In this document: positions 13,522 through 52,411 of the stretch, piece after piece
Layout: each line of letters starts with the position of its first letter
Position numbering within the stretch: the stretch's first letter is position 1
Source of the DNA: Actinomycetes bacterium
GTDB taxonomy: Bacteria > Actinomycetota > Acidimicrobiia > Acidimicrobiales > JAKAOS01
Assembly (NCBI GenBank): GCA_021795215.1
Contig: JAJYPS010000002.1
Coordinates: 2,748 to 66,747, forward strand
Direction: 5' to 3'
Length of the DNA: 64,000 nt
Program-made: the position numbers and the translations under genes
Notes under the pieces: model-generated
Database searches by the model: none
What the model was told of the DNA's origin: nothing
Seen by the model: only the letters and a program-made list of their open reading frames with translations

Positions 13522-14133
13522 CTAACCCGAGACAGCCGCCGCGTGTGGTATGCGTGACAAGAAGTTGGCAATCAGTCGGCGGCCTTCGCCGGTCAGTATC
13601 GACTCCGGATGGAACTGGACTCCCTCGATCGGCATGTCCAGGTGGCGTAGGGCCATCACGACTCCGTCGTCGGTCTCGGCGGTGACCTCCAGGCAGCCCG
13701 GCATGGTGGACCGGTCGACCACCAGGGAGTGGTAGCGCGTCGCCTCGAACGGCTGCGAAAGACCGCTCAGGACTCCGACGTCCGAGTGGCGCACCGGTGA
13801 GGTCTTGCCGTGCATCAGCGACGCAGCTCGGACGACTTCCGCCCCGAACACATGTCCGATGCACTGATGGCCTAGGCACACCCCGAGAGTCGGAACGGTG
13901 CGCGACACCGTCTCTACGAGAGCGCAAGAGATGCCTGCGGTCTCGGGACGTCCGGGGCCGGGCGAGATCACCAGAGCATCGGGGGCGATCCGTTCGACGT
14001 CGGCGACGGTTACGGCGTCGTTCCGGTACACCAGCGGTTCGGCTCCGAGCTCGCCCAGGTACTGCACCAGGTTGTACACGAACGAGTCGTAGTTGTCTAT
14101 GACCAGCACCCGCGGAGCCGAGAGGGCGGTCAC
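13522..14133 (-). CDS. glutamine amidotransferase, anthranilate/aminodeoxychorismate synthase component II
   Basis: [18 protein letters not shown], the catalytic-Cys motif LGVCLGHQ, and GVQFHPES. Its start overlaps the end of pknB by 4 nt. Confidence 0.9.
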
Positions 14134-15953: not shown

Positions 15954-16002
15954 GTGCTTCCAGAGCCTAGGCCGGATCGCGGTCGTCTCTCGGACGCCGC
16001 CG

Positions 16003-17454: not shown

Positions 17455-17455
17455 C

Positions 17456-18871
17456 TCAGCCGGCCCCGGGGCTCGTCGACGACGGTACGGCCGTCGTGGT
17501 GGAGGTGGTGGGCGAGCGACTCGAAGGGGCCGATGGCGACGATCCGGGCGGCAGCGGAAGGCTCCGGTACTCCGACGCCAGGTTGGCGACGAAGCGCTTT
17601 GCCGCCGACAGGGACGGCTCCTGCACCCCCTGTTGAAGCGATGGAATTCGATACGCGAGGACGTGAGACTGGGTGAGGCCGGTGCGGACGACAGTCCGGG
17701 GCTGTATCCACAGCAGTCCTCCGGCCCTTCCCTGCTCGATCACGACTTTCTTGCGCCGCAATGTCACGAAGTAGGAGCTGTGGTCGTACCACACGATCGC
17801 CCCGAGTGCGCCCACGATCAGCAGTACCAGCACCAGGAGGAACAGAACCACCCGGAGCGTGACCCTACGCGGTGGGTGCCCGAGGTCCGAGCCGGCGCCC
17901 TCCCGCTGCGAGGCACCCTCGGCCTGCAGCTTCGGGCCACTGCGGTCCATGTCGGCGTCCCCGTTTGCGGGAGACCGGCGAACGGGGGCAGCGTGCTCCA
18001 CAGGTTGGAGGCCCGTCTCGCCCGGGGAAGGGGTGAGGACCGGGTGGGGGGCACCGTCGGCCCCCGCCGCTCCGGCCCCACCCGCCGCTCCGGCCCCCGA
18101 CTCCACGTCCACGATCACGACGGTGATGTTGTCGTTGCCGCCGTTCGCCTTCGCCGCCTCCACCAGTGCCTCGGTTGCCTGCCTCGCCTCGGGATGCTGC
18201 CTGAGCAGCTGAGCGATCCTCTCGTCGTCCACTTCGTTGACGAGACCGTCGCTGCAGAGGAGGAAGCGGTCTGCGTTCATGGGCTGGAAGTTCCACAGGT
18301 CCACGTCGACGTTCGAGTCGACGCCCAGGGCTCGGGTCAGGATGTGCCGGCCCGGATGCTCCGCCGCCTGGCTCTCGGTTATGCGGCCTGCCCGAACCAG
18401 ATCCTGCACCAAGCTGTGATCTGCCGTGACCTGGGACAGAACCCCTGCCCGCCACAGGTACGCCCGCGAGTCCCCCACGTTGGCCAGAGCCAGCCGCTCC
18501 TCCCCCTCGGCACCGACCAGAGCCAGAACCGTGAGAGTGGTGCCCATGCCCCGCAGCTGTTCGTCTGCCAGTGAACGCTCCCAAACCGCCTGGTTGGCTT
18601 GGCGGACGGCTTGCCGCACCTTCTCGCCAGTAGCTTCCGTGCCGGCGAGAGCGGATCGCAGCGTCTCGATTGCTATTTGCGCTGCCACCTCGCCACCCTG
18701 GTGACCTCCCATGCCGTCGGCGACGGCACAGAAAGCGGGTTCGACGATCGCCCGGTCCTGGTTGGCCGCCCGCACGCAACCGACGTCCGTGGCCAGCACC
18801 GAATGCAGCGTGGTCACGTCTCGGCTATGCCCTCTGACGCCGCGTGACCGGACGCGGGCAGGTACGCGCAC
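17456..18871 (-). CDS. pstP: PP2C-family Ser/Thr phosphatase with C-terminal TM and extracytoplasmic domain
   Basis: AVADGMGGHQGGEVAA and GGNDNITVVIVDV, followed by the TM helix VVLFLLVLVLLIVGALGAIVW. An alternative GTG start lies at 18817. Confidence 0.85.
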   Translation of the reverse strand: MRVPARVRSRGVRGHSRDVTTLHSVLATDVGCVRAANQDRAIVEPAFCAVADGMGGHQGGEVAAQIAIETLRSALAGTEATGEKVRQAVRQANQAVWERSLADEQLRGMGTTLTVLALVGAEGEERLALANVGDSRAYLWRAGVLSQVTADHSLVQDLVRAGRITESQAAEHPGRHILTRALGVDSNVDVDLWNFQPMNADRFLLCSDGLVNEVDDERIAQLLRQHPEARQATEALVEAAKANGGNDNITVVIVDVESGAGAAGGAGAAGADGAPHPVLTPSPGETGLQPVEHAAPVRRSPANGDADMDRSGPKLQAEGASQREGAGSDLGHPPRRVTLRVVLFLLVLVLLIVGALGAIVWYDHSSYFVTLRRKKVVIEQGRAGGLLWIQPRTVVRTGLTQSHVLAYRIPSLQQGVQEPSLSAAKRFVANLASEYRSLPLPPGSSPSAPSSRSPTTSTTTAVPSSTSPGAG

Positions 18872-18881
18872 GCTTGGAGGA

Positions 18882-19346
18882 TCACTTGTCGACGACCGCC
18901 AACGTCCGACCGAACAGCAGCTGATCGCCCTTGTGGAGCGCGGTGGGCGATCCGACTCCCTTTCCGTTGACCCACGTTCCGTTCGTCGATCCCAGGTCCT
19001 CCACCCACACGGTCCCGTCTCTCACGAACACCCTTGCGTGGATGCTGGACGTGTAGCTGTCCTCCGGCACCGAGACGGCGCAGCCGGCTGCCCGTCCCAG
19101 CGTCATCTCGCCGTCGATCGGGAACGTTTCTCCGGACCGCTCCTTCGGCTCGAGGATCCGGAGAGTGAGCCCACTCGGCCTTTCCCGGCCGCGTGGCTCT
19201 CCGGCAGCACTCGGGGAGTCACCTACGACTCCTTGACTTCCGCCCCGGCGAAGCTCCGCCCACATGGCACGCACCACCCGGAGGAAGAATAGCCAGACCA
19301 GGGCCACCAGGAAGAACTTGAGTATCGTCAGGAGCTGCGCCGACAA
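18882..19346 (-). CDS. fhaB: FHA-domain membrane protein FhaB/FipA-like
   Basis: A TTG start at 19346 gives LSAQLLTILKFFLVALVWLFFL (TM helix), then the FHA domain LGRAAGCAVSVPEDSYTSSIHARV...DLGSTNGTWVNG. The longer track ORF (to 19547) would overlap fhaA. Confidence 0.75.
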   Translation of the reverse strand: MSAQLLTILKFFLVALVWLFFLRVVRAMWAELRRGGSQGVVGDSPSAAGEPRGRERPSGLTLRILEPKERSGETFPIDGEMTLGRAAGCAVSVPEDSYTSSIHARVFVRDGTVWVEDLGSTNGTWVNGKGVGSPTALHKGDQLLFGRTLAVVDK

Positions 19347-19348
19347 CG

Positions 19349-20005
19349 CTAGCCCGTCTCGAACGTCAGCGTCGTCCTGCCTACCGTGATCCTGTCGCCC
19401 TCGTTCAGCCTGCGTTCCTTGGCCGGGATGCCGTTCACCAACGTCCCGTTGGTCGATCCCAGGTCGAACAGGGTCACGTACCCGTCCCGGCGCCGGACCT
19501 CCGCATGGCGCCGGCTCACGTTGGGGTCGTCCAGCCGCAGCTGGCACTCCGGGAGCCTTCCTATGACCAGCGGCCCGTCCTCCAAGTGGATCCGGTCGCC
19601 CGAAGGCGTGACCAGGGCTGCTGCCGGACCTCCGCCGGGGCCCTCCCTCACTTCAGTCTCGATCAGGAAGACGCCCGGACGAAGGTCGGCATCCTCCAGT
19701 AGCTCCACCTCGACCGGACCCAGCAGGCCGTACCCTTCCTGGTGGGCATGCTGCCTGGCGGCATCCACCAGCTCCGTCGACAGTGCTTCTGCGAAGCTCT
19801 CGAACCGGGAGACGTCCTCTTCGGAAAGCACCACTCTGAACACGTTCGGGGCGATGGTCCCCCGAACCCCAGCCGTACGCTGGAGGTCCATCTCTCTCGT
19901 CAGGCGGCGCCCGATCTCGACCGGCTGGAGCCCACGGCGATAGGTCTTCGCAAAAGCACCTTCCACCAGCCGTTCCAGCCGCCGCTCAAAACGCTCGAGT
20001 CCCAT
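19349..20005 (-). CDS. fhaA: FHA-domain protein FhaA-like (DUF3662 N-terminus + FHA)
   Basis: N-terminus MGLERFERRLERLVEGAFAK, and C-terminal FHA domain IGRLPECQLRLDDPNVSRRHAEV...DLGSTNGTLVNG. Confidence 0.85.
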   Translation of the reverse strand: MGLERFERRLERLVEGAFAKTYRRGLQPVEIGRRLTREMDLQRTAGVRGTIAPNVFRVVLSEEDVSRFESFAEALSTELVDAARQHAHQEGYGLLGPVEVELLEDADLRPGVFLIETEVREGPGGGPAAALVTPSGDRIHLEDGPLVIGRLPECQLRLDDPNVSRRHAEVRRRDGYVTLFDLGSTNGTLVNGIPAKERRLNEGDRITVGRTTLTFETG

Positions 20006-20067
20006 TGTCGCCCAGAGCCTACCCAGAAAGACGGCGTCGCGGGCAGCCCGCTAAGCTCAGGTGGCCG

Positions 20068-20151
20068 GGGCGAGTGGCGGAATTGGTAGACGCGCAGGAT
20101 TCAGGTTCCTGTGAGGGAAACTTCGTGGGGGTTCAAGTCCCCCCTCGCCCA
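20068..20151 (+). tRNA. tRNA-Leu (anticodon CAG), long variable arm
   Basis: Sequence GGGCGAGTGGCGGAATTGGTAGACGCGCAGGATTCAGGTTCCTGTGAGGGAAACTTCGTGGGGGTTCAAGTCCCCCCTCGCCCA. Acceptor GGGCGAG pairs with CTCGCCC, the anticodon stem-loop is CAGGA-TTCAGGT-TCCTG, and the T-arm is GGGGG-TTCAAGT-CCCCC. Confidence 0.9.
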
Positions 20152-26304: not shown

Positions 26305-26805
26305 TCAGCCGCTGATCGTCCACCGGCTCTCCCGTTGCGCCATCACTGCCAGAGCCAGCCCCAGGACACCCAGGTCCCGCATCCCTATGGCGTTCACACC
26401 GTTGACGCTGAGCGCGATCACGATCTCCGCCATCACGAGAGCGCCCACGGCGCCCGCCAGCCTAGGGAGGATGCCCAGCACCAACGAACCGGCGAGCATC
26501 AGCAGGAGCCAGCCGTGCACCTCCACCGCCCCCACGGCCAGCGCGCTGGTCGGCTTCAGGACGGGGACGTAGAGCGTCCACAGGTTCGGTGCCAGCAGCT
26601 CCTGGACGGCGAAGTAGCCGAACACCAGCCCCAGCATCATCCGCGACACCACCTGCGCCCAGCCGCTGGCTCGTTCCAGCAGCGAACCGAGCCACAAGGC
26701 CCTCGATCGGCCCTCGGAATCGTTCCGAGCTGGCGACGAAGCGCCACTCATGCTCGGCCTCGGGGCGCCGCGTGCCGTGCCGGTGGAGACTGTCCGGTAG
26801 CTCAT
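26305..26805 (-). CDS. DoxX-family membrane protein
   Basis: Four TM helices. The N-terminal helix is RMMLGLVFGYFAVQELL. Its start overlaps the upstream gene stop (ATGA). Confidence 0.55.
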   Translation of the reverse strand: MSYRTVSTGTARGAPRPSMSGASSPARNDSEGRSRALWLGSLLERASGWAQVVSRMMLGLVFGYFAVQELLAPNLWTLYVPVLKPTSALAVGAVEVHGWLLLMLAGSLVLGILPRLAGAVGALVMAEIVIALSVNGVNAIGMRDLGVLGLALAVMAQRESRWTISG

Positions 26806-42142: not shown

Positions 42143-43669
42143 TCAGTTGGCTCTTCCGGCCAGTTCCATCTTCCCGGCATTTCGATCGGGCACGAGTTGC
42201 TCGAGGGACAGGCCGGATGCCTCCTTACCGCCCGAGCGGGAGTAGATGGCCATGGCCATCACTCCCACGGCCCAGAAGAGACCGACCAACAGGTACGAGA
42301 ACGCGGCGCCGATCTGAGCCGCTATGGACGGCAGGGCCAGCGTGCCGACGATCGCTCCGATGCGGCCCACTGCGACCGATGTGCCAACCCCGGCACCTCT
42401 CAGATGGGTCGGGAACAGCTCGGTGAAAGTCGGGTACGCCGATGTCCAGGCCCCGGTCGCTGCGGCGTTGGATATGACGAACGCCCCGGTCACGAGCACT
42501 GCGCTACCGGTCGACGTCGCTATCGCCAGCAGTCCCACTCCCACCGCGGCTGCGGCGTAGAACCCGATCACTGTCCGCTTCCGGCCGAGGCGCTCGATGT
42601 TGGCCGACATCGCGATGCCTCCGGCGAGACCACCCACGTTGCCCACTATGTAGAAGAAGGGGATCTGGACGTTCGACACGTGGACCTGCTTCAGCACCAC
42701 GACGGACAGTACGGCGAAGATGCCGTAGTAGCCGAACGCTTCGGCGAGGTCCAACGAGCATCCGAGTGCCAGCCGACCCGGGTACTTGGCGACCAGCTCC
42801 CTGATGGCTTGGGGGAAGGAAGGAGCCGACCGCTCTATCGGTGCCCCCGCCGGTCGACCCCTGCGGCCACCGCCGGAAGCGGCCTCCAGCGAAGCGACTA
42901 TCGCCTCCGCCTCGTCCAGCCGACCCCGGGACACCAGCCATCGGGGGGACTCGGGCAGGTGCCGCCGGAAGAACAGCACTACGAGGGCGATGACCCCGCC
43001 AAAGGCGAATATGTATCGCCACGACATGGCGTTGGACACGGTCAGCAGGTTGAGCACGACGAATGCGAGGAGCGCGGCCACGATCGCTCCCGCCGGCCAG
43101 AAGTTCATCACGAATGCATTTGCGCGGCCGCGGACGCGGGCCGGCACGAACTCGGCGATGGCAGAGTTGACGATGGAGTACTCGGCTCCGACTCCCAGCG
43201 CTGCCAGCGCACGGAACGCGTACACCAGCACGAGCGTCGGGCTGAGTGCCGTGAGGAACGTGAAACCCGCGTACCAGAGCAGCGTGAGCATGAACAGCCT
43301 TCGCCGGCCGAACCGGTCGGCCAGCCGGCCTCCGGCGAGCGCACCCAGGAGTATCCCTGCCAGCCAGACGGCTTGGACGGCGTCCCTCTGGAGGAACGAC
43401 GCGTGGAAGTAGTCTCCCAACGGGCCGATGGCGTTGCCGAACAGCTGCACCTCGAAAGCGTCGAACAGCCATCCGGCCCCAAGTGCGAGAAGAATCGCGT
43501 TGTGGACCGGGCTCCACTTCAGCCGGTCCAGGCGGGCGCCTATGTCGGCACCGGGCGGCGATTCGGCGGCTGGTGACCCAGGCGTTGCGGACAAGGCGTT
43601 CTCTCCTTCTGTTTCGTCGGTGACCGAGCGCGGCGACCGAGCGCGGGGATCGGTACGAGGGGGTGCCAC
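42143..43669 (-). CDS. MFS transporter (metabolite:H+ symporter / sugar-porter-like)
   Basis: 12-TM layout with GGRLADRFGRRRLFM (MFS motif A) and GVGAEYSIVNSAIAEFVPARVRG. Confidence 0.8.
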   Translation of the reverse strand: MAPPRTDPRARSPRSVTDETEGENALSATPGSPAAESPPGADIGARLDRLKWSPVHNAILLALGAGWLFDAFEVQLFGNAIGPLGDYFHASFLQRDAVQAVWLAGILLGALAGGRLADRFGRRRLFMLTLLWYAGFTFLTALSPTLVLVYAFRALAALGVGAEYSIVNSAIAEFVPARVRGRANAFVMNFWPAGAIVAALLAFVVLNLLTVSNAMSWRYIFAFGGVIALVVLFFRRHLPESPRWLVSRGRLDEAEAIVASLEAASGGGRRGRPAGAPIERSAPSFPQAIRELVAKYPGRLALGCSLDLAEAFGYYGIFAVLSVVVLKQVHVSNVQIPFFYIVGNVGGLAGGIAMSANIERLGRKRTVIGFYAAAAVGVGLLAIATSTGSAVLVTGAFVISNAAATGAWTSAYPTFTELFPTHLRGAGVGTSVAVGRIGAIVGTLALPSIAAQIGAAFSYLLVGLFWAVGVMAMAIYSRSGGKEASGLSLEQLVPDRNAGKMELAGRAN

Positions 43670-43743: not shown

Positions 43744-44571
43744 TCACCTGATGCCCAGTGTCGCATCGGCCCCTGCGCTGGTGCCGGTCGCGAGCCCCAC
43801 GGCCGCGTTGGCGGCTATCGACAGCGGGTTGACCGTCCGGCTGATCAACAGGTCCAAGTCGAGGTCGCCGTTCGTCACAGTGGGGCCGAACGGGCTCCAG
43901 AACGCTCCGTCGGCGCTGATCGTCAGCTCGCAGGGGATGTTCTCGACGCCGGCGGAGAGTCCCATGCCCGCGGTCAGCGCCCGCCCTCTGCTGATCACCG
44001 GTCGAACCACATGGTCCTCGTCCGGCACGCCCAGCTCTCTGTGCAGCTTGCAGAGCCGTTCGAGCGCTTCCTCGCCTATCTCCTCCTGCGTCGTGGCTAT
44101 GCGGACCTTGATCCCCTTGTCCACCAGCTTCGGTATGGCCTTGACGACTTTCGCGAAGTTCTCCGGTCCCCGCATGGAGTCGTTCTCGTCGGGGTCCGGG
44201 CTGTCGAGGGAGATCTGAATCGATATGGGCAGGCCTCTCAAATGCTCCATCCTCTCCAGGCGCGGGCCGGAGAAGAGGGTGCCGTTGGAGAGCACCACCA
44301 GCGGCAGGATGTTCGCCAGGGTGGCCAAGGTGTCGGGCATGTGCGACACCATGAACGGCTCGCCTCCGGTCACACCCAACGAGCGGAACCCCAGCTCCCT
44401 CGCCTGGAAAGCGAGCTCGACCATCAGGGCCGGGTCGAGCAGCCTCCGAGCGACGGCCGGACCGGATCCGGTGAGGCAGTAGCTGCAGGTCAGGTTGCAG
44501 TGGTAGTTCGCATAGAACCACACCCGTTCGCCGACCGCTCCACTGGCGATCGCGTCGCTGACAGCGGTCAC
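43744..44571 (-). CDS. radical SAM enzyme (no SPASM/twitch Cys-rich extension)
   Basis: CX3CX2C cluster motif in FYANYHCNLTCSYCLTG and the GGE motif GVTGGEPF. The GTG start overlaps the stop of the upstream AhpD-like gene (GTGA). Confidence 0.8.
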   Translation of the reverse strand: MTAVSDAIASGAVGERVWFYANYHCNLTCSYCLTGSGPAVARRLLDPALMVELAFQARELGFRSLGVTGGEPFMVSHMPDTLATLANILPLVVLSNGTLFSGPRLERMEHLRGLPISIQISLDSPDPDENDSMRGPENFAKVVKAIPKLVDKGIKVRIATTQEEIGEEALERLCKLHRELGVPDEDHVVRPVISRGRALTAGMGLSAGVENIPCELTISADGAFWSPFGPTVTNGDLDLDLLISRTVNPLSIAANAAVGLATGTSAGADATLGIR

Positions 44572-45173
44572 AGCACCCCCTCTATCTCCAGGCGGGCCAC
44601 GGTGTCCTCCGAGACGGGAAGCTCCAAGGCGGTCGAGAAGCGGTTCAGCAGAAGCGTGACGCCGCTCAGCAGGGCCAGCTCCACCAGCCCTGCGTCGCCG
44701 AACCGACCTTGGATCGGGCTCTGGACCGCCTCGGGGATTCCCGAGCGGCCGACTGCCATCTCGTCCACCCAGCGGATCAGTTCCCTGTCCCGGTCGTCCT
44801 CGAACGCCGTCTCCAGATCGCCATCGCCCCTCAGAGCCCTCACCTGGGCCGGCCGAAGGCCGGCATCCAGGGCGGCGGCACTGTGACCGGTGGTGCAGAA
44901 CGAGCAGCCTGCAAGTGCGGAAGTGCGTAGGACGACGACCTCTTTCGTCCGGGGGTCGAGGCTCGTCGGGCCGAAAATAGTTCCCAGGAGCGGCGCCGCC
45001 GCCTGCAGAAGTTCCGGCGTCTGCGCCAGGGCACGGACGATAGGACCCGGGTCGCCATCTTGGAAGAATGGCCGCGCCAGCAGGGGCGCGTTATGCGTCT
45101 CGAGAAGCTTCACCACAGCCATACCGACGAGTGTCCCACTGCTCGACTTCTTATGAGCAATCGGCAGGCCCAC
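44568..45173 (-). CDS. carboxymuconolactone decarboxylase / AhpD-like family protein (CxxC)
   Basis: AhpD-type motif LAGCSFCTTGHSAAAL. An alternative ATG start lies at 45122. Confidence 0.7.
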   Translation of the reverse strand: MGLPIAHKKSSSGTLVGMAVVKLLETHNAPLLARPFFQDGDPGPIVRALAQTPELLQAAAPLLGTIFGPTSLDPRTKEVVVLRTSALAGCSFCTTGHSAAALDAGLRPAQVRALRGDGDLETAFEDDRDRELIRWVDEMAVGRSGIPEAVQSPIQGRFGDAGLVELALLSGVTLLLNRFSTALELPVSEDTVARLEIEGVL

Positions 45174-45213: not shown

Positions 45214-45816
45214 CTAATAGCCTAAGGAACGGATGTAGCCGGCAAATCGGCCAGATGGTGCGGAACTGGCGACGAGCGACAGCTGGTCCACTGTGTCGAC
45301 GTCCACGAGCGGGGGCAGCAGTGCGACCCGCAGGCCCTCATCCTGAAGCCGCCTCAGCTGCGCTTTCCCCGTAGCGGACGTGCTCATGGGGACCCGGGAG
45401 AACACTCGCGGATCAGGGGTTCGCATGCCGATCGCCCACCACCCCCCGTCGTCCGCCAAGCCCAGCACCGCGTCGACTCCCGGTCCTGCGAGGGTTCTCA
45501 GGCACTCTTGGAGCAGTCCGGGCGTCACCTGGGGGGTGTCCATGCCGATCTGGATGCCACCCTGGCCCAGGTCGCTCCACGCGTTCGCCAGGCGTTCCGC
45601 CAGCCCCTCTCCCCGTTGACGCACCACCTCGAACCCGTCGGGAAGCCAGGGGCCGACCGTTCCGTCCAGGAGCAGCACCCGTCGCCCAGCCGCTGTCGCA
45701 GCAACCGCGTCGAGCGTGTCCAACAGGGCCGACCTCGCCACCTCACATGCCTGGTCGGGCGAGAGCGGAGGGCAGAGCCGGGTCTTCACCTTCCCCGGTA
45801 CCGGCGCCTTGGCCAT
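45214..45816 (-). CDS. DUF2064-family GT-A/nucleotidyltransferase-like protein
   Basis: MAKAPVPGKVKTRLCPPLSPDQA...ALLDTLDAV ... GLADDGGWWAIG is the hallmark layout of DUF2064. The start is the ATG at 45816. Confidence 0.7.
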   Translation of the reverse strand: MAKAPVPGKVKTRLCPPLSPDQACEVARSALLDTLDAVAATAAGRRVLLLDGTVGPWLPDGFEVVRQRGEGLAERLANAWSDLGQGGIQIGMDTPQVTPGLLQECLRTLAGPGVDAVLGLADDGGWWAIGMRTPDPRVFSRVPMSTSATGKAQLRRLQDEGLRVALLPPLVDVDTVDQLSLVASSAPSGRFAGYIRSLGY

Positions 45817-45928
45817 GACACTCAGATGGAATTGCGGGTAGGGCGAGACCGACCTTGTGGCCGGATCGATTCCGAGAGGAGCTCTCGCCGGGGCCTCGCC
45901 GGCGGATGCCGGTGCCGGTTCACGTCGC

Positions 45929-47317
45929 TCAGCCAACCTGGCGCAGCTCCGAGCGGAGCAGCTCGGCGAACGCGCGCACGACCCCAGCCGGCTCGTCCGT
46001 AACTCCCCCCTCGGCGAGCCGGGAGGGCGTCGTCCGCCGCGCAGCCGACAGGAGTGCCGACTGCGCCCGCACTCGGGCTCCCTCGTCGAGCGTCTCCAGG
46101 TCGGATACCTTCGCCAGCCCGACGATCCGTCGCACGATCTCACACCCCGCATACCCGCACGCATCCTCGGACGCACGCAGGAGCCAGGCCTCGAGGAAGT
46201 CGTCGCCGAACGACGTGTCGGTCCGCGCCGGCCACAGGGCTCGCAACTCCGCCTCGAAGCTGACCCATACCCGTTCCACTGCCACCAGCAGCCACGCCAA
46301 CATGTCGCCGCTCCGCTGCGTGCCCAAGTCGCAGACCGCCGCCCTGCCGGCTGCGAGCGCCAGGTTCCCCATCAACATGCCCACGTCGAGTGCGGCCGGC
46401 CCGTAGAAGCAGAACTCCGGGTCGAACACCTTTGCCGCCCATAGTGACCCTTCCCCGTCCGGGAGCTGCGTGGGGGACACTCGGGCGTCGCGGCGAGATG
46501 GCCCTCCGCCGTCCCCTTCGCCCCCGCCGCCCGATCTGTCGCCCGCAGTTCCAGCGCCACCTTGGCCCCCGCCCACCTGCCGGTCCCCCGACTGCCGGAC
46601 CATTATCGAACCCGTGTGCAGGTCGCCGTGCACCAGCGCCTCGGACGCCGTCAGGAAGCGGTGCTTCAAGCGCTGCACGTTGGCGATGTAGTGGCGGTCT
46701 CGGCGCAAATCCTCGACGGCTCTCGCCAGCCCAGGGAAGAAGCTGTTCCTCGGATGGTCCACGAAAGGCTCCGTGAGCACGAGCTGCTCCGTGATGGCGC
46801 AAAGCTCGGCGTTGGCCGAAGAGCACACCTGCCGGCGCAACGCTTCGGAGGGCAGTCCCATGAAGGACGTGGCGAACACCATCCGTGCCGAGTAGGCGCC
46901 GGCGTCCGACTCGGCACCCGGCGCGGGGACGCCGCTGTTGAGCAGGGAGCGGAGGACGGTCCAGCCGGACAGGTTCTCCAGGGCCAGGGCGTAGCGCCGG
47001 GCGTCGAAGCCGAAGTAGCGGGGAACGAGGGTGGGGGCCGCTTCGCTCGCCACTTGGTAGGAGCGGGCTTCGGCGCAGGCGCGTTCCGGCGAGAGGGGCC
47101 ACTCCGGCCCGACCATGCGGACGTACGGAAGGGACTGCTTGATGCAGAGACCGGGCATCCCAGGGCTTTCGCAGATGAAGACGAGGTTCAGGTTCCCGTC
47201 GCCCACTTCCCGCACCGAGAGCCGCAGCGGGTCCACCGAGCCGTGCAGATGGGGCTGGCTCTTCAAGTAGTCGGACAAGTTGTCGGGCGTCAGGAGCTCA
47301 TAGGACTCGTAGGACAA
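45929..47317 (-). CDS. mtnK: S-methyl-5-thioribose kinase homolog
   Basis: It is co-linear with MtnK as I remember it: VGDGNLNLVF, IKQSLPYVRMVGPEWPLSPERA, ELCAITEQLVLTEPF, HGDLHTGSIMV, DPEFCFYGP and GYAGCEIVRRIVGLAKVSDL. A TTG start at 47317 is proposed. The track ORF extension up to 48076 is antisense to the GT2 gene and is rejected. Confidence 0.8.
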   Translation of the reverse strand: MSYESYELLTPDNLSDYLKSQPHLHGSVDPLRLSVREVGDGNLNLVFICESPGMPGLCIKQSLPYVRMVGPEWPLSPERACAEARSYQVASEAAPTLVPRYFGFDARRYALALENLSGWTVLRSLLNSGVPAPGAESDAGAYSARMVFATSFMGLPSEALRRQVCSSANAELCAITEQLVLTEPFVDHPRNSFFPGLARAVEDLRRDRHYIANVQRLKHRFLTASEALVHGDLHTGSIMVRQSGDRQVGGGQGGAGTAGDRSGGGGEGDGGGPSRRDARVSPTQLPDGEGSLWAAKVFDPEFCFYGPAALDVGMLMGNLALAAGRAAVCDLGTQRSGDMLAWLLVAVERVWVSFEAELRALWPARTDTSFGDDFLEAWLLRASEDACGYAGCEIVRRIVGLAKVSDLETLDEGARVRAQSALLSAARRTTPSRLAEGGVTDEPAGVVRAFAELLRSELRQVG

Positions 47318-47567
47318 GAGGCAGCCTCCGGGGATTGCCGGAACGGCACGGCGGCGATGGGGGCCGTGTGCTCGCGGCACTACCGGAGGAAGGTACCACT
47401 GCCGGAAAAGTACGGCCCGGGCGGACCCAGTGCCGACCTGGCCAGGCGGCCAAGCGCCGACCTGCTGCGGCGAAGGTCGGTGTGGGCATAGCACAGGGCG
47501 CGGCAGTACCATCCGCGCCGACCACGGCACATACCGGCGACCGACCAACGACCAGACGAAGGACGAC

Positions 47568-48620
47568 ATGAACAGCACGCCAGCCGTATCGGTAGTACTG
47601 CCCTTCCACAGAGGGGGCCGGTTCCTGGAAGACGCGGTGGAGAGCGTTCTTGGCCAGTCGTTCACCGACTGGGAGCTCATCCTGGTGGACAACAACGCGG
47701 GGCTGAAGCCGGACACGAGCCGGTGGCCGGACAAGGTGAAGACGATCCGGGAGCAACGTCCGGGAGCCGCCTGGGCGCTGAACGCCGGGACAGCGGCTGC
47801 GAGCGGAAGGTACGTGGCCTTCCTGGACGAGGACGACCTCTGGATGAGAGAAAAGCTGGCGATGCAAGTGGAGGCGTTGGACTCCCGTCCCGATGCGGGC
47901 CTGTGCCACACGGGGCTGGAAGGCATCGACGCCGACGGGCGGGTGATCGGTTCACGGGCGGCTCGCCCCCTGACGTACGCCGACGTGCTGGCCGACCGCG
48001 GGCTGTGGAAGATGAGCTGCCTAATGGTGCGCCGGGAGCTGCTCGTCGGAGTGGGCGGCTTCGACCCGACGTACACTCTCGCTCCGGACCTGGACCTCGG
48101 CCTGAGACTGCTCTACTTCGAGTCGGGGGTGTTCCTCGACGAAGTCCTGCTGCGGTACCGGTATCACGGAGACAACATCTCCCACGGCTACTGGCTCCAG
48201 GGCCAGGAAGCGCTCCGGACGCTGGGCGTCCACCGCAGGCAGGCATTCCTGGAGCGCCGGTGGCGAGTGTGGGCCGGAGCTTGGCGAGGCGTCGCAACGG
48301 TGCGTCACGGGTACTCGAGAAACGCGTTCGCACGCGCCCGCAGGGCGGTGGACGCGGGGCGCCCGGTCGGCGAAGTGGGTCGTCACGTCGCTTACTCGGT
48401 CGCCTTCTCGCCGACCGGGCCGCTCGGTGCGATGGCGGCCCGTCTGGTGAACAAGGGTCGGTCGAAGATCTGGCCGGAGGTGGACAGCTGGGGGGGACCC
48501 GCGGCTCCCGCAGAGGTAGCTCCGGCTGGGGGTGCTCCGGCTGCGAGTGCTCCGGCCGACCGCGGCGCCGAAGCAGCACAGGACCAGCCAGCGGCAGGGA
48601 AGCAACTCCCGATCTCCTAG
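47568..48620 (+). CDS. family-2 glycosyltransferase (GT-A)
   Basis: VSVVLPFHRGGRFLEDAVESVLGQSFTDWELILVDN and the DxD motif FLDEDDLW. The ATG at 47568 is divergent from mtnK. Confidence 0.8.
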   Translation: MNSTPAVSVVLPFHRGGRFLEDAVESVLGQSFTDWELILVDNNAGLKPDTSRWPDKVKTIREQRPGAAWALNAGTAAASGRYVAFLDEDDLWMREKLAMQVEALDSRPDAGLCHTGLEGIDADGRVIGSRAARPLTYADVLADRGLWKMSCLMVRRELLVGVGGFDPTYTLAPDLDLGLRLLYFESGVFLDEVLLRYRYHGDNISHGYWLQGQEALRTLGVHRRQAFLERRWRVWAGAWRGVATVRHGYSRNAFARARRAVDAGRPVGEVGRHVAYSVAFSPTGPLGAMAARLVNKGRSKIWPEVDSWGGPAAPAEVAPAGGAPAASAPADRGAEAAQDQPAAGKQLPIS

Positions 48621-48653
48621 CCCCGGGGCGGCGGCCGTCCGGGTTTGCGTCGG

Positions 48654-48686
48654 GACCGGGCGGCGACCGGGCGACGACCGGGCGAC
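48654..48686. repeat. 11-bp tandem repeat x3 (GACCGGGCGNC)
   Basis: gaccgggcggc, gaccgggcgac, gaccgggcgac, in the convergent gap between the GT2 and epimerase genes. Confidence 0.85.
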
Positions 48687-48746
48687 GATGGAGGCTGGCT
48701 CGTCAGCTCGCCGGAGGCGACACCGGTCGGTGGCGGGATGCTGGCG

Positions 48747-49862
48747 TCAACCGAGGGGCGCGCGGAGCTCGGCCGTGGCGAAGTCGGCCATCCCCTCCTC
48801 GAACGCGATCCGATGCCGGAATCCCAGGCAGCGGGCCGCGGCCTCCGGGGAAGCGGTTATGTGCCGAACGTCGCCGAGCCGGTACTCGCCCGTCGTCACG
48901 GGAGACGGGGCGCCGGGTCCGAAGGCGGCCGCAAGAGCGTGCGCCATATCGGCGATTGTCCGTACTACCCCCGTCGCTATGTTGTAACACCCCGACGCCG
49001 ATGGTCCGGCCTGCAGAGCGGCCAGATTGGCCCGTGCGATGTCGGATACGTGGATGAAGTCGCGGCGCTGCATACCGTCCTCGAAGACTCGGGGCGGTCG
49101 GCCGGCCTCCAGCAGACTGCGGAAGATGCTGGCCACCCCGGCGTATGGCGTGTCGCGAGGCATCCGCGGTCCGTAGACGTTGTGGTACCGGAGCGATACG
49201 ACCGGGCAACCGACTTCTCTCGAGAACGTCTGGCAGAGGTGCTCCTGATGGAGCTTCGTCGCGGCGTAGATGCTCCGCGGGTCGACCGGCTCGCTCTCGT
49301 CGATCTCGGTCGGCTCGAGCGGCGCCCCGCATTGGGGGCATGGCGGCTCGAAACGGCCGGCCCGCAGGTGCTCCTCTCGGCGAGGCGCCGGCCGCACGCG
49401 GCCGTGGGTGGGACAGCTGTAGCCCCCCTCGCCGTAGACGACCATGCTGGAAGCGAGCACGACCGGACCTCTGAAGGAGCTGGCGAACAGGGCCTTCAGC
49501 AGGGTCGCCGTTCCGAGGTCGTTGTCCGCGACGTAGCCGACGGCGTCGCCGAAGTCGACACCCAGCCCGACCCGCGCCGCCTGATGGCACACGGAGTCGA
49601 CGCCGCTCACGGCTGCGGCGCAGACGTCGGGGGCGCTGACGTCGCCCCACACATACTCCGCCCCCGGGTTCAGGTAGGTGGGTTTGCCCGAATGGGCCGC
49701 CTCGGACAGGTTGTCGAGCACCCGGACCCCGTATCCTTCGGAAAGGAGCAGATCGACGACGTGGGAACCGATGAAACCGGCGCCCCCGGTTACCAGAACG
49801 AGCACGAGTGGTCCCTTCCTGCCCCAAGACGCAGCGCCCGCCGGCGTGCGTGTCGCGGGCAT
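48747..49862 (-). CDS. NAD-dependent epimerase/dehydratase (extended SDR) with zinc-ribbon-like insertion
   Basis: VTGGAGFIGSHVV and the catalytic YxxxK in IYAATKLHQE. The insertion is CPTHG...(22 aa)...CPQCG. Confidence 0.8.
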   Translation of the reverse strand: MPATRTPAGAASWGRKGPLVLVLVTGGAGFIGSHVVDLLLSEGYGVRVLDNLSEAAHSGKPTYLNPGAEYVWGDVSAPDVCAAAVSGVDSVCHQAARVGLGVDFGDAVGYVADNDLGTATLLKALFASSFRGPVVLASSMVVYGEGGYSCPTHGRVRPAPRREEHLRAGRFEPPCPQCGAPLEPTEIDESEPVDPRSIYAATKLHQEHLCQTFSREVGCPVVSLRYHNVYGPRMPRDTPYAGVASIFRSLLEAGRPPRVFEDGMQRRDFIHVSDIARANLAALQAGPSASGCYNIATGVVRTIADMAHALAAAFGPGAPSPVTTGEYRLGDVRHITASPEAAARCLGFRHRIAFEEGMADFATAELRAPLG

Positions 49863-49892: not shown

Positions 49893-50564
49893 TCAGGACG
49901 GACCCCGGTAGCACCCGGCCACATGCAGGAAAAGTGGTTCGTTGCAACCGCTGCTGAGCCGCTTGGCCCATGTCGTTCCCAACGACCGCATTTCCGGATA
50001 AGTCAGGTAGCGGGATTGCCGCAGTTCTATGCCCTTCGCCGCGAATGCGGGTGCCACCACTTGTGCGACATGGGCGGGAGTCGGGGCGGGCAGGTGGTCG
50101 AACCGTCCCGGCAGGTCGTGCTCCCAGATCCTGGTGTTGAGCGTGAGAGTCAGGTGGGCGCCGGGTGCGCAGAGCCGGGCCAGGCCGCCGACGATCTCCG
50201 GGTCCGCGGTGACGATGCCTTCAAGCAGGCGTCCCCAGGGAAGCTGGACGAACACGGCCGAGGCGGTGCGATGGAGGACGGTCGGAAGCTCCTCGACCGA
50301 CGCGTGGACCAGCAGCAGGTTGGGCGCTCCTCCTTTGGCCTGCTTGCGAGCGGCCCGGCGGGCCGTGGCGGCCATGTTGGCCGCCACCGGGTCGACCCCG
50401 ACCACCAGAGACTCGGCCGTAGAGCGGGCGAGGTGGTAGGCGAAGCGGCCGTCGCCCGTGCCGACGTCGACCACGACATCCCCGTAGGCGGCTCGCAGCG
50501 CCTGGAACCGGTCGTCCGGCACGACGGCACGCTGCCGGTTGGCCATCACGACGGCGAGGCTCAA
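49893..50564 (-). CDS. 16S rRNA (adenine1408-N1)-methyltransferase family protein (KamB/NpmA-like)
   Basis: It is co-linear with NpmA/KamB as I remember them: VVDVGTGDGRF (NpmA HIDLGTGDGR), VGVDP (GIDP), KGGAPNLLLV (KGGLSNVVFV), EELP, QLPWGRLLEGIV (LFPWGTLLEYV) and TTWAKRLSSG (SLWAKRLAFG). Both substrate-stacking Trp positions are conserved. Confidence 0.7.
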   Translation of the reverse strand: MSLAVVMANRQRAVVPDDRFQALRAAYGDVVVDVGTGDGRFAYHLARSTAESLVVGVDPVAANMAATARRAARKQAKGGAPNLLLVHASVEELPTVLHRTASAVFVQLPWGRLLEGIVTADPEIVGGLARLCAPGAHLTLTLNTRIWEHDLPGRFDHLPAPTPAHVAQVVAPAFAAKGIELRQSRYLTYPEMRSLGTTWAKRLSSGCNEPLFLHVAGCYRGPS

Positions 50565-50646
50565 GGATGCTCCCCGGAGTGGGGTGCGGCCGGCTCGCCG
50601 GCCGACGCCTTCGACCAGGGAAGTGGAGCGACCCGGGGCGGAGACG

Positions 50647-51123
50647 TCACTTGTGGTACGGCTCGTTTCGGGCGATGGTCCCGGCCCGGTACAGCTGTTC
50701 GGCCAGCACCAACCGGGCGATCTCGTGGGGCAGCGTCCACGGAGCCAGCGCCAGGAGCAGGTCGGCGCGGCGGCGGCCCTCGTCGGGGAGGCCGAACGCT
50801 CCCCCTACCACGAGCGCGATCGGGCGGCCGGACTCCCTCCGGCTCCGGATAGTGGCGGCGAAGCGCTCCGATGTCATGGACACGCCCGACTGGTCGCAGA
50901 CCCACAGCTCGCGGGAGCCGGGCAGTGCGGCCTCTATCTGCACCCACTCCCGCTGGCGGACCTCGTCAGGCCTGCCGCCCCGAGTCCTGTTCCCACTCAG
51001 CTCCCGCACCTGCAGCGGCCAGTACCTGGCCGCTCGCCGCTCGTAGTCGGCTATTGCGCCGGCCAGGTGAGGATCGGACGGTCTGCCGATCACCACCACG
51101 AGGATCCGGTTGCCGCTGCTCAT
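50647..51123 (-). CDS. rlmH: 23S rRNA (pseudouridine1915-N3)-methyltransferase
   Basis: SPOUT-fold protein of 158 aa with YWPLQVREL ... ALVVGGAFGLPDE ... LAPWTLPHEIARLVLAEQLYRAGTIARNEPYHK. Confidence 0.85.
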   Translation of the reverse strand: MSSGNRILVVVIGRPSDPHLAGAIADYERRAARYWPLQVRELSGNRTRGGRPDEVRQREWVQIEAALPGSRELWVCDQSGVSMTSERFAATIRSRRESGRPIALVVGGAFGLPDEGRRRADLLLALAPWTLPHEIARLVLAEQLYRAGTIARNEPYHK

Positions 51124-51136
51124 TACCCATGAGACG

Positions 51137-52411
51137 CTAAGTGCCGCCGCCTTGGTCCTCGTTTCGCCGGCGGAGCGAGAGCACGAGTCGGTAGGCGTCG
51201 CGGCGGGACATCGGGGCGGCCTGGGCGACCGCGTCGGCCAGCACGCGGGTGGGCACGGCGGGCAAGTTGCGGACCATGCGGCACACCAGGTCGGCCGCAG
51301 GACCGGACAGCTGCTGCTGGATCGCCGGGGCGGGACCGATCACCAGTGTGTACTCTCCCCGCGGCGGCGAGCCGGCCACAACTTCTGCCGCCCGCTCGGT
51401 GCGGGTGCCCACTATCTCCTCGTGGATCTTGGTCAGCTCCCTCGCCACGCACAGGTCCCGGCCGGGCAGAACGGCGGCGACGTCCTCCAGGCACTCCGCC
51501 AAGCGGTGGGGAGCCTCGAACACGACGATCGCTCCCGGATTGGAGCCCAGTTCGGCGAGGGCGGCTCTGCGAGCCGCCGCCTTGCGGGGGAGGAACCCGG
51601 CGAACGTGAACCGGTCGGCCGGTATGCCGCAGGCGGACAGGGCCACGATCGGCGCGCTGGGCCCTGGAACGGGCCGGACGGGGATGCCCGCCTCCCTGGC
51701 CGCCCGGACCAGGGCGAAGCCGGGATCGCTCACGACCGGCGTGCCGGCGTCGGTCACGACCGCCACTCTGGTGCCTGCGGCCAACAGCTCGACCGCCTGG
51801 GCCGCTCCGCGACTCTCGTTTCCCACGTGGTGGCTGCGCAGGTCCTTGATGGCAATCCCGGCGCCTCTGGCCAGGGAGCGGTACTTGCGGGTGTCCTCCG
51901 CCAGCACCACGTCCACCTGCTCCAGCACGCGACGGGCTCGGGGCGACAGGTCCCCGTCGTTGCCGACCGGCAGCCCCACCACGTACAGCGCTCCGGGCCC
52001 GGCAGGTCGGCCCTGCACCGGTTGCAGCGTGACGAGCAGTTCGGCGCCCGGCGCCCGAAGGTCCTCGACGAGCGCCCGGTCCACGTCGGCTGCGGAGGCG
52101 GTGGCGTCGAAAGCGAACGTCCGCTCGGCCAGGTCCGCTCCTCGGCGGAACACCAGTGACGAGCCGCCCAGGAAAGTGGGCGACACGGTGCACTCGAAGC
52201 AGAACCGGTGGCCGCCGGACACGAGCGTCACGCCGATCCTGCCCGATAGCGACCTCAACTGCCCGGCGTCCCAGTGGGCGCCCACGCCCACGATGCAGCT
52301 GCCTCTGGCCGTCAGGTCCGAGTCGGCGGTGATCTCCAGCGACTTGTGGTGTGTGGCGCCGACCAGCGGATGGCCGCGGGCGCGAATGCGGACGGGCGGG
52401 GCGGCTGCCAA
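51137..52411 (-). CDS. rsmI: DUF371 domain fused to 16S rRNA (cytidine1402-2'-O)-methyltransferase
   Basis: The N-terminal ~125 aa read IRARGHPLVGATHHKSLEITADSDLTARGSCIVGVGA (DUF371-like). The RsmI core follows: LYVVGLPVGNDGDLSPRARRVLEQVDVVLAEDTR, TDAGTPVVSDPG, VVFEAPHRL. Confidence 0.75.
   Translation of the reverse strand: MAAAPPVRIRARGHPLVGATHHKSLEITADSDLTARGSCIVGVGAHWDAGQLRSLSGRIGVTLVSGGHRFCFECTVSPTFLGGSSLVFRRGADLAERTFAFDATASAADVDRALVEDLRAPGAELLVTLQPVQGRPAGPGALYVVGLPVGNDGDLSPRARRVLEQVDVVLAEDTRKYRSLARGAGIAIKDLRSHHVGNESRGAAQAVELLAAGTRVAVVTDAGTPVVSDPGFALVRAAREAGIPVRPVPGPSAPIVALSACGIPADRFTFAGFLPRKAAARRAALAELGSNPGAIVVFEAPHRLAECLEDVAAVLPGRDLCVARELTKIHEEIVGTRTERAAEVVAGSPPRGEYTLVIGPAPAIQQQLSGPAADLVCRMVRNLPAVPTRVLADAVAQAAPMSRRDAYRLVLSLRRRNEDQGGGT

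Follow-up and report, generated by a model that had tools for sequence, protein, structure and literature searches.

The closest described counterpart of the locus analysed here is the Mycobacterium tuberculosis cluster Rv0535-Rv0541c for 5-methylthio-xylofuranose (MTX). In the model that Angala et al. are said to have put forward in 2017, methylthioadenosine (MTA) yields 5-methylthioribose (MTR) 1-phosphate, which is turned into a nucleotide-MTR, epimerised at C3, carried as decaprenyl-phosphate-MTX and finally placed on lipoarabinomannan. We take Rv0535 to be an MTA phosphorylase (MTAP), Rv0536 to be GalE3, a short-chain dehydrogenase/reductase (SDR), and Rv0540 to be a DUF2064 protein, and we know of no biochemical demonstration of the cytosolic steps, be it of the nucleotide-sugar enzyme, the nucleotide used or the epimerising enzyme. 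The lipid-linked MTX donor is made by MtxS (Rv0539) and transferred by MtxT (Rv0541c) (PMC8780516, PMC12088412). Here we analyse a locus built around an MTR kinase (MtnK)-type gene and a DUF2064 gene in a 64,000-nt stretch of contig JAJYPS010000002.1 from an uncultured Actinomycetes bacterium of soil (the whole stretch is referred to as the window). We propose, with a probability of roughly 0.55, that this locus is a lineage-specific, rearranged variant of a widespread actinobacterial cluster that activates and transfers a 5-deoxy-5-substituted pentofuranose.

Window genes were called by third-position GC content (overall GC content ~68%) and checked with Pfam and NCBIfam, so that practically every gene called in the 64 kb is annotated. 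The locus comprises the following features:

45929..47317, minus strand: MtnK-type kinase, 462 aa, heading the minus-strand run (TIGR01767)
46436..46594, minus strand: Gly-rich insertion in MtnK, 53 aa, delimited by alignment with canonical MtnKs
45214..45816, minus strand: DUF2064 protein, 200 aa (PF09837, 84.8 bits)
44568..45122, minus strand: AhpD/CMD-family protein (CMD), 184 aa, with the longest open reading frame (ORF) reaching 45173 (PF02627)
43744..44571, minus strand: radical S-adenosylmethionine (SAM) enzyme (rSAM), 275 aa (PF04055, 67.5 bits)
47318..47567, no strand: intergenic region from which the MtnK operon and GT2 diverge, 250 nt, presumed promoters
47568..48620, plus strand: glycosyltransferase of family 2 (GT2), 350 aa (PF00535, 71.7 bits)
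48747..49862, minus strand: GalE-like extended SDR epimerase, 371 aa (PF01370, 166 bits)

MtnK, which starts at a TTG codon with GGAGG 7 nt upstream, is followed in the same direction by DUF2064 after a 112-nt spacer, by CMD after another 91 nt and then by the rSAM gene, which overlaps CMD by 4 nt; the CMD start was placed at 45122 because the orthologue in the sister contig L001 has 184 aa. GT2 diverges from MtnK across 250 nt and SDR converges with GT2 at a distance of 126 nt, SDR and DUF2064 being 2.9 kb apart with MtnK and GT2 between them. An earlier note on this DNA had correctly listed DUF2064 (at exactly 112 nt), the divergent GT2 and the convergent SDR as neighbours of the kinase, but the list was incomplete, the CMD and rSAM genes of the operon having been overlooked. 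Operon boundaries are deduced from spacing because a promoter and terminator scan of 39.5-50.7 kb gave nothing above shuffle expectation, with no sigma-70-like match in the 250-nt spacer. An Rfam scan of the whole window returned three tRNAs only; the 112-, 91- and 250-nt spacers gave no match to any riboswitch, those for SAM included.

The evidence that carries our proposal comes from the relatives of DUF2064. We scanned one genome per GTDB species for DUF2064-anchored loci, kept the best 80 of at least 594 and counted neighbours within 10 kb by gene calls based on third-position GC, tblastn and hidden Markov model (HMM) searches, a procedure whose frequencies apply to close relatives only. 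Almost all loci (79/80) are labelled Actinomycetota, the remaining one being a metagenome-assembled genome (MAG) labelled Burkholderiales, and the hosts include many Streptomyces, Nonomuraea, Kribbella, Glycomyces, Solirubrobacterales and Acidimicrobiia. A short GT2 of ~215 aa accompanies DUF2064 in 75 of the 80 loci and an SDR in 70, followed by a membrane molybdenum (Mo) oxidoreductase (54/80), a SAM methyltransferase of ~220 aa (50/80), a protein with 8-10 transmembrane (TM) segments and no Pfam match (47/80, GT87 or PMT_2 proteins being the alternatives), a two-component system (44/80), GT87 (12/80), MTAP (5/80) and a window-type rSAM (2/80, both only 35-36% identical to the window rSAM); MtnK and CMD are each found in 0/80. 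The short GT2 resembles polyprenyl- and dolichyl-phosphate sugar synthases (AglJ, dolichyl-phosphate-hexose transferase, ArnC and PpgS). Outside the sister lineage, the two DUF2064 genes nearest to that of the window (65% and 62% identity) reside in tightly overlapping operons with the order methyltransferase, Mo-oxidoreductase, small protein, PMT_2-type GT-C glycosyltransferase, short GT2, DUF2064 and SDR.

Judged by their sequences, the window DUF2064 and SDR are true members of this widespread cluster, that is, orthologues at ~60-65% identity, because full-length identity between the window SDR and the SDRs that lie beside DUF2064 in 70/80 genomes is 60-65%. Moreover, the SDR scores 585 bits with an HMM of the cluster-SDR family, its best match in the Protein Data Bank (PDB) is 6wjb/6wj9, and its YxxxK motif is intact, as it is in 67/68 orthologues. 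As a separate observation, the SDR harbours an insertion of ~32 aa with a zinc-knuckle-like CxxH...CxxC pattern (49301-49421, residues ~148-187) that is absent from GalE and PelX structures and whose residues C150, H153, C175 and C178 are kept in 64-67 of 68 orthologues (from loci L009-L088).

The window DUF2064 protein exceeds the gathering threshold of PF09837 (84.8 versus 25.8 bits) and matches the DUF2064 structure 3cgx at 1e-11; its relatives at 58-65% identity carry the NCBI name TIGR04282, and the best match among the GTDB species representatives returned, which do not include the species of the window, is 63% identical. An alignment of homologues shows AKxPxPGxVKTRL, GMDTPQ and DGGWW as invariant motifs. 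An AlphaFold2 (AF2) model made with 15 homologues (predicted local distance difference test, pLDDT, 89.4) retrieved with Foldseek, in this order, 3cgx, M. mazei CofC (2i5e), M. tuberculosis FbiD/Rv2983 with phosphoenolpyruvate (PEP; 6bwh, also 6bwg), the CMP-Kdo synthetases (KdsB) and GlmU. DUF2064 models as a CofC/FbiD-type nucleotidyltransferase rather than a Leloir glycosyltransferase, and we read it as a putative nucleotidyltransferase because its top fold matches act in this capacity on phosphorylated or sugar substrates. This agrees with the earlier description of DUF2064 as GT-A/nucleotidyltransferase-like, and the retained fold and N-terminal K-T-R-L motif dispel the concern, voiced at the time, that nucleotide-binding residues might be lacking. 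The literature searched contained no mention of DUF2064 or Rv0540.

Turning to the kinase, we obtained 326.3 bits with the S-methyl-5-thioribose kinase model of NCBIfam, TIGR01767 (cutoff 275), the match being split in two stretches by an insertion, and the protein aligns with Bacillus subtilis MtnK (2olc) at E = 6e-54, again in two stretches. The protein is indeed the clear MtnK homologue that had been recognised before, with all quoted motifs located (GDGNLNLVF at 47177-47203, HGDLHTGS at 46607-46630 and DPEFCFYGP at 46397-46423). Aligned with B. subtilis MtnK and eight homologues, the kinase keeps as invariant motifs the G-loop GDGNLN, the ATP lysine (IKQ), HGDLH, DxE and, at the C-terminus, GCExxRR, and it therefore looks catalytically competent. 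It nevertheless sits on a long branch: identity among canonical MtnKs is 51-67%, compared with 44-50% between them and the window lineage, and a collection of 5.8 billion sequences yielded three close relatives (100%, 93% and 70% identity), all others being at most 50% identical. A Gly-rich, low-complexity insertion between the catalytic loop (HGDLH) and DxE is absent from all canonical MtnKs aligned and varies in length among the three relatives (53, 42 and 36 aa). An origin of this insertion in a DNA repeat was rejected, only a weak 9-nt periodicity being present. The 70% relative, encoded on L001, shows the same arrangement, with MtnK and DUF2064 co-directional and separated by 22 nt; because the flanking CLC-channel and helicase genes are shared with the window as well, L001 represents a sister genome and no independent case. 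We also came across a near canonical-type MtnK homologue (P0006, from a Chloroflexota MAG; L172:2927-7236) that has no adjacent salvage genes and lies beside polysaccharide genes (Wzy_C and GT1), and that may be another MtnK recruited to glycan synthesis.

The enzyme that produces 5-methylthioribose-1-phosphate is a recurrent, optional member of the DUF2064 cluster and occurs there in several independent lineages: MTAP (309 bits on NF005876; cutoff 306) is present in 5/80 clusters compared to ~0.3 expected by chance for a single-copy gene. In a Glycomyces cluster the order is DUF2064, GT2 and MTAP with gaps of ~25-50 nt, in two Kribbella species MTAP is followed by SDR after a 24-nt gap, and three further MAG loci encode MTAP as well, an Iamiaceae MAG and, separately, L004 being among the clusters with MTAP. 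Because an enzyme making a 5-substituted ribose-1-phosphate thus recurs in the cluster, MtnK is a plausible non-orthologous replacement for MTAP, a functional analogue rather than a homologue. The position of MtnK and GT2 between SDR and DUF2064, the genes of the conserved linkage, supports our proposal.

On the basis of its family and intact active site, MtnK would phosphorylate a free 5-substituted ribose at C1 to give a sugar-1-phosphate, the substrate being most simply MTR that is either released from MTA by a nucleosidase encoded elsewhere or imported. DUF2064, by virtue of its fold, would then condense the sugar-1-phosphate with a nucleoside triphosphate (NTP) to a nucleoside diphosphate (NDP)-pentose, and the orthologous SDR may epimerise the sugar, at C3 if the MTX model applies. 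In the last step a glycosyltransferase would pass the sugar on, a task that in most relatives would fall to the short polyprenyl-phosphate-sugar synthase together with the GT-C protein. This is the weakest step, since the short GT2 and the GT-C protein are missing from the window and either the adjacent soluble GT2, as a candidate, or genes elsewhere would have to act as the transferase. The window would then contain the cytosolic half of an MTX-type pathway with a different entry point, in which MtnK feeds DUF2064 and the reactions presumably follow in this order. The proposal in the earlier note that an NDP-pentose is built and transferred here gains from the DUF2064 fold, the orthology of DUF2064 and SDR and the recurrence of MTAP as far as the activation part is concerned, but GT2 turned out not to be the conserved partner; similarly, its idea of a kinase-initiated analogue of the MTX cluster agrees with the composition of the locus, but not with the lack of MtxS-like and GT-C partners in the window.

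Several observations weigh against sugar activation and transfer at this locus. First, searches with family HMMs in six frames revealed no short GT2, GT-C-like protein, Mo-oxidoreductase or cluster methyltransferase in the window, and because these partner genes are missing the end of the pathway is absent from view. With regard to polytopic GT-C-like proteins, six-frame searches of the window with HMMs of the 445-aa, 475-aa, 507-aa and GT87 families were negative, as the earlier note had stated for GT-C transferases, and unannotated window ORFs are free of TM-like segments except for a 130-aa ORF (26305-26697) with three. Second, the window GT2 is not conserved as a companion of the cluster: among 168 loci its sole relative is in the sister contig L001. 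It is TuaG/EpsE/WcaA-like and soluble, without a TM segment, scores 85 bits on TuaG (cutoff 400) and 27.2 bits on TIGR04283 (cutoff 182), and is matched by the HMM of the conserved short GT2 only at E = 6e-4. A role of this GT2 as TIGR04283 or MtxS equivalent was rejected on the basis of these scores and its absence from all loci other than the sister contig. Third, DUF2064 remains just under the cutoff of TIGR04282 (129.5 versus 134 bits). Fourth, MtnK occurs in none of the 80 DUF2064-anchored loci and in none of the 80 rSAM-anchored loci (described below), and the conserved mtnK-DUF2064-GT2 linkage envisaged earlier did not materialise, the mtnK-DUF2064 linkage being confined to one lineage (the 100%, 93% and 70% relatives, the last of which is not independent). 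Fifth, no nucleosidase that could supply free MTR is encoded in the window. Finally, the assignments of Rv0535, Rv0536 and Rv0540 and the reported MTX route, on which the comparison draws, are presumed ones.

Ordinary salvage or detoxification is the alternative that survives best, although we consider it unlikely. MtnK would in this case act on MTR or on 5-deoxyribose (an rSAM by-product, cf. DrdK), its product would be handed to an isomerase encoded elsewhere, and the adjacency to DUF2064 would be incidental. MtnK does pass the MTR kinase equivalog cutoff, and its nearest non-sister relatives reside in salvage operons: two of the four nearest lie beside genes for an isomerase, a transketolase and a RuBisCO-like protein (RLP), one beside an Aldolase_II fusion and one alone, such that salvage partners (IF-2B, transketolase/RLP or Aldolase_II) adjoin 3/4. 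The nearby rSAM gene would fit the disposal of 5'-deoxyadenosine, the 112- and 91-nt spacers leave room for separate promoters, and the confinement of the mtnK-DUF2064 linkage to one lineage also speaks for salvage. However, Pfam and NCBIfam scans, run on practically every gene called in the 64-kb window, failed to detect IF-2B (mtnA), Aldolase_II (mtnB), ARD (mtnD) or PNP_UDP_1 (mtnN/mtnP), no mtnC homologue is present among the annotated genes of the window, and the same scans found no RLP or enolase-phosphatase near MtnK. The window is therefore devoid of any isomerase, aldolase, dehydratase or nucleosidase for such a route, and the earlier statement that it holds no other methionine-salvage gene was borne out. 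Salvage also leaves aside that MtnK is wedged between SDR and DUF2064, whose linkage is conserved in 70/80 genomes, that the analogous MTAP recurs inside the same cluster elsewhere, and that MtnK has the long branch and the unique insertion described above.

The remaining two genes of the minus-strand run, CMD and rSAM, belong to a different context. The rSAM carries an invariant CX3CX2C motif (C25/C29/C32) and one further conserved Cys, without an auxiliary-cluster domain. Its best family is NF049973 (Rv1681), on which it scores 193 bits (cutoff 380; model positions 68-303 of 326), compared to 40.5 bits on ArsS TIGR04167 (cutoff 300) and 34 on HpnH, and it belongs to a short subfamily related to the Rv1681 family. 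It has more than 2500 homologues, the close ones at ~60% identity. A fold search retrieved generic core matches only (SkfB, viperin, MoaA, BlsE, DesII and AbmM), all with TM-scores below 0.5, from a model with a pLDDT of 69; because the model is weak and the matches are generic, we draw no functional inference from it. CMD scores 49 bits on PF02627 and matches TIGR00778 (ahpD_dom), and the residues of its CxxCxxxH motif, C73, C76 and H80, are kept in 69, 69 and 68 of 69 homologues, respectively.

An rSAM-anchored scan, from which the best 80 loci were kept (L089-L168, all on metagenome contigs) and whose frequencies likewise hold for close relatives only, revealed that CMD adjoins the rSAM in 71/80, the remaining loci being mostly cut by contig ends: CMD is an obligate partner of the window-type rSAM. 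A DoxX-family membrane protein is the third partner in 38/80 loci (e.g. L094, L142, L147 and L158), and an Rv1678-like membrane protein or an acyl-CoA dehydrogenase is sometimes found with the pair. DUF2064 and a short GT2 lie within 10 kb of CMD-rSAM in 11/80 loci, or in 8/32 loci of at least 8 kb versus ~0.3 expected, several of them forming a single operon with GT2, DUF2064, DoxX, CMD and rSAM, and MTAP is present in 1/80. The DUF2064 proteins of these loci are of a different subtype (35-51% identical to that of the window, versus 63%), and therefore the junction between CMD-rSAM and DUF2064 seems to have arisen more than once. In addition, near-full-length Rv1681-type rSAMs (324-351 bits) are encoded in L031 (3603-9259) and L033 (5963-11766) in operons with the order rSAM, DoxD-like protein, 517-aa membrane protein, short GT2, DUF2064 and SDR, and a single 7-kb stretch of L004 holds SDR, short GT2, DUF2064, CMD, rSAM and MTAP, with MTAP directly beside rSAM. 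The CMD-rSAM pair is a separate module that recurrently joins DUF2064 clusters, and it may determine which 5-substituted sugar is made. We found no earlier description of this recurrent association of CMD-rSAM (with DoxX/DoxD) with DUF2064 clusters, and in the literature searched Rv1681 appears only as an antigen, with no function given.

These associations lend some weight to a second alternative, rather improbable in our view, in which the rSAM drives the pathway. With the acceptor bound to the AhpD-like CxxC protein, the rSAM would attach the 5'-deoxyadenosyl group of SAM to a heteroatom (S, Se, As or another), as in arsenosugar synthesis; the 5'-X-5'-deoxyadenosine would be cleaved and C1-phosphorylated by MtnK (or undergo phosphorolysis by MTAP elsewhere), and nucleotidylation by DUF2064 and glycosyl transfer would follow, such that the sugar would not derive from MTA. 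NCBI and JGI name the DUF2064 family 'rSAM/selenodomain-associated transferase 1 / arsenosugar biosynthesis' after its partnership with ArsS. ArsS adenosylates arsenic (Cheng et al. 2021, cited in PMC12159101). The frequency of CMD-rSAM near DUF2064 and short GT2 in the long loci, often within one operon, the independent joins suggested by the differing DUF2064 subtypes, the Rv1681-type rSAMs at the head of the L031 and L033 operons and the position of MTAP beside rSAM in L004 all argue in the same direction, as does the fact that MtnK heads the operon of the rSAM in the window; some NCBIfam families, moreover, combine an AhpD domain with an arsenite methyltransferase in one protein (weak matches). 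On the other hand, with its low scores on ArsS and HpnH the window rSAM resembles ArsS no more than it does many other families, it lacks an additional Cys-rich domain or selenodomain, the fold search was uninformative, and the window contains no arsenic genes (arsM or ars). Furthermore, ~75% of the long CMD-rSAM loci are without DUF2064 and 78/80 DUF2064 clusters are without such an rSAM within 10 kb; since most loci of each kind do without the other, neither module needs the other in cis. A specific version of this idea, which we rate as a long shot, is that the rSAM and its AhpD-like partner perform ArsS-like chemistry on a non-arsenic acceptor (e.g. a protein-bound persulfide or selenide), and that the resulting 5'-X-5'-deoxyadenosine passes through MtnK/MTAP, DUF2064, SDR and the glycosyltransferase to yield 5-heteroatom-substituted pentose glycoconjugates that would form a class new to science in Actinomycetota. 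If true, this would provide a function for M. tuberculosis Rv1678-Rv1681 and would unite the arsenosugar, MTX and window systems in one family of 'adenosyl-derived sugar' pathways.

A third explanation, chance juxtaposition, in which the six genes are rearrangement leftovers of an ancestral short GT2-DUF2064-SDR operon and DUF2064 and SDR may be decaying remnants, would account for the missing canonical partners, for a gene order unlike the canonical tightly overlapping operon and for the presence of SDR in a run with rRNA methyltransferase genes, but it is very improbable because all ORFs are intact with their invariant motifs kept and relatives with 70-93% protein identity have preserved both arrangement and sequences, and DUF2064 would come to lie within 3 kb of its SDR by chance in only ~0.2% of cases for a genome of 4-5 Mb.

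Two further sets of genes touch on the cluster. The first is the Mo-oxidoreductase of the relatives (L062:11760-12992, L169:6165-7361 and L170:4942-6123), a membrane-anchored protein with five TM-like segments and an Oxidored_molyb domain that resembles sulfite oxidase or MsrP, with weak similarity to SoxC, SorA and MsrP. At the cell surface it might act as a reductase for the sulfoxide of a methylthio sugar, and together with the thiol-redox proteins DoxX, DoxD and AhpD it would, by context, fit a sugar that bears a thioether or sulfoxide. DoxX itself is not encoded in the window. The second set lies downstream of the rSAM gene and begins with a transporter:

42143..43594, minus strand: MFS transporter, 149 nt downstream of rSAM on the same strand (PF00083 and PF07690, ~146 bits each)

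This transporter has generic NCBIfam MFS matches only and is co-located in L001 but absent from the other 160 loci; that it belongs to the pathway, where it might import the free sugar for the kinase, is doubtful. The MFS, DUF4214-methyltransferase, CutA1 and polyphosphate glucokinase genes located downstream found no support as pathway genes: they co-occur only in the syntenic sister contig, and two of them resemble housekeeping genes.

Three rRNA methyltransferase genes in a row (49893-52411, minus strand) lie directly upstream of SDR. The nearest, which ends 30 nt before the SDR start, encodes a homologue of the KamB/NpmA-family 16S rRNA m1A1408 methyltransferases (224 bits on Pfam NpmA; 170 bits on NCBIfam KamB, cutoff 350) and suggests intrinsic aminoglycoside resistance; the other two encode RlmH and a fusion of DUF371 (N-terminal) with RsmI. 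The KamB-like protein was rejected as a stand-in for the conserved methyltransferase of the cluster, as it gave a weak generic HMM match (E = 7e-5). Farther away, within 1-1313, the start of the window cuts an ORF for a serine recombinase with Resolvase, Recombinase and Zn-ribbon domains; this ORF overlaps an opposite-strand tRNA (1241-1313), an arrangement that may mark the edge of an integrated element. A conserved actinobacterial cell-division block at 13522-20151 comprises a class-I glutamine amidotransferase (TrpG/PabA-like, Pfam GATase), PknB with PASTA domains, PbpA, the PP2C phosphatase PstP, FhaB, FhaA and a tRNA; in this block neither rodA/ftsW nor pknA is found between pbpA and pstP.

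What do these findings imply for related systems? DUF2064 emerges as a CofC/FbiD-fold candidate for the nucleotide-sugar step of MTX synthesis, and the wide distribution of the module (Streptomyces, Nonomuraea, Kribbella, Solirubrobacterales and Acidimicrobiia) offers tractable test organisms. The swap of a kinase for a phosphorylase amounts to a natural experiment and points to a 5-substituted ribose-1-phosphate as the input of the cluster. The more interesting new element is the coupling of the AhpD-like/rSAM pair (with DoxX) to DUF2064 clusters, which, along with DoxD, connects Rv1678-Rv1681 to MTX-type machinery by context and family names. The results also bear on environmental surveys, as TIGR04282 serves as an indicator gene for arsenic and stress tolerance in a global soil metagenome study (PMC11237643). 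We encountered no ArsS-type neighbour in the 80 best DUF2064 loci, where the two rSAM neighbours are both of the Rv1681 type and no query with ArsS or ArsM was made. Because the context of DUF2064 looks like MTX-type glycan synthesis, the arsenic-tolerance reading of TIGR04282 is probably wrong or misleading in Actinomycetota.

Compared with known systems, the window shares individual parts with several pathways. The closest characterised folds to DUF2064 (TM-scores of 0.66-0.76) are those of CofC and FbiD, guanylyltransferases for 2-phospho-L-lactate or PEP (2i5e, 6bwh), which likewise nucleotidylate a phosphorylated small molecule and share an N-terminal K-x-R-L type motif with DUF2064; yet the identity amounts to 16-18%, the substrate of DUF2064 would be a sugar-1-phosphate instead of phospholactate or PEP, and there is no F420 context. 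Methionine salvage, the dihydroxyacetone phosphate (DHAP) shunt and 5-deoxyribose salvage have in common with the window an MtnK-family C1 kinase with all catalytic motifs. Their downstream partners (MtnA/DrdI and an aldolase or RLP) are, by contrast, absent nearby, where the next gene encodes a nucleotidyltransferase-fold protein, and a DrdK-DrdI-DrdA cluster of kinase, isomerase and aldolase cannot be assembled from a window with neither IF-2B nor Aldolase_II. The ArsS arsenosugar set (TIGR04282, TIGR04283 and TIGR04167), in which the sugar is expected to come from the adenosyl moiety of SAM, resembles the window in that a DUF2064-family protein is found beside an rSAM and a redox-active Cys protein. 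The window differs from this set in its specifics: its rSAM is not ArsS, its GT2 is not TIGR04283, its DUF2064 falls just below the TIGR04282 cutoff and models as a nucleotidyltransferase rather than a glycosyltransferase, and arsM and ars genes are lacking. As to M. tuberculosis Rv1678-Rv1681, the window rSAM has Rv1681 ('MoeX', NF049973) as its best family, and the CMD-rSAM pair of the relatives is accompanied by DoxX/DoxD or Rv1678-like (NF049986) proteins and in some cases by an acyl-CoA dehydrogenase, just as in Rv1678-Rv1681; the window stands apart through the short form of its rSAM (275 aa), the AhpD-like partner and the lack of DoxX.

The MTX cluster remains the nearest match. The broad actinobacterial cluster has the same parts list, namely MTAP (sometimes), SDR, a ~215-aa GT2, DUF2064 and a ~450-aa polytopic membrane transferase, a likeness drawn from composition, and its protein sizes and gene adjacencies match those attributed to the MTX cluster. 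Relative to the MTX cluster, the window has MtnK instead of the phosphorylase, a rearranged gene order, an embedded AhpD-like/rSAM pair and a soluble 350-aa GT2 in place of MtxS-like and MtxT-like genes; put differently, the DUF2064-SDR pair of an MTX-type cluster is present, whereas MTAP, the MtxS-like protein and the GT-C protein are missing. Rv0535-Rv0541c and the window nonetheless follow the same logic, in which a 5-substituted ribose-1-phosphate would become a nucleotide sugar that is epimerised by a GalE-like SDR and used for glycosyl transfer, and we file the locus as one that works like a kinase-initiated MTX-type sugar-activation module rather than as a complete member of the MTX-type cluster.

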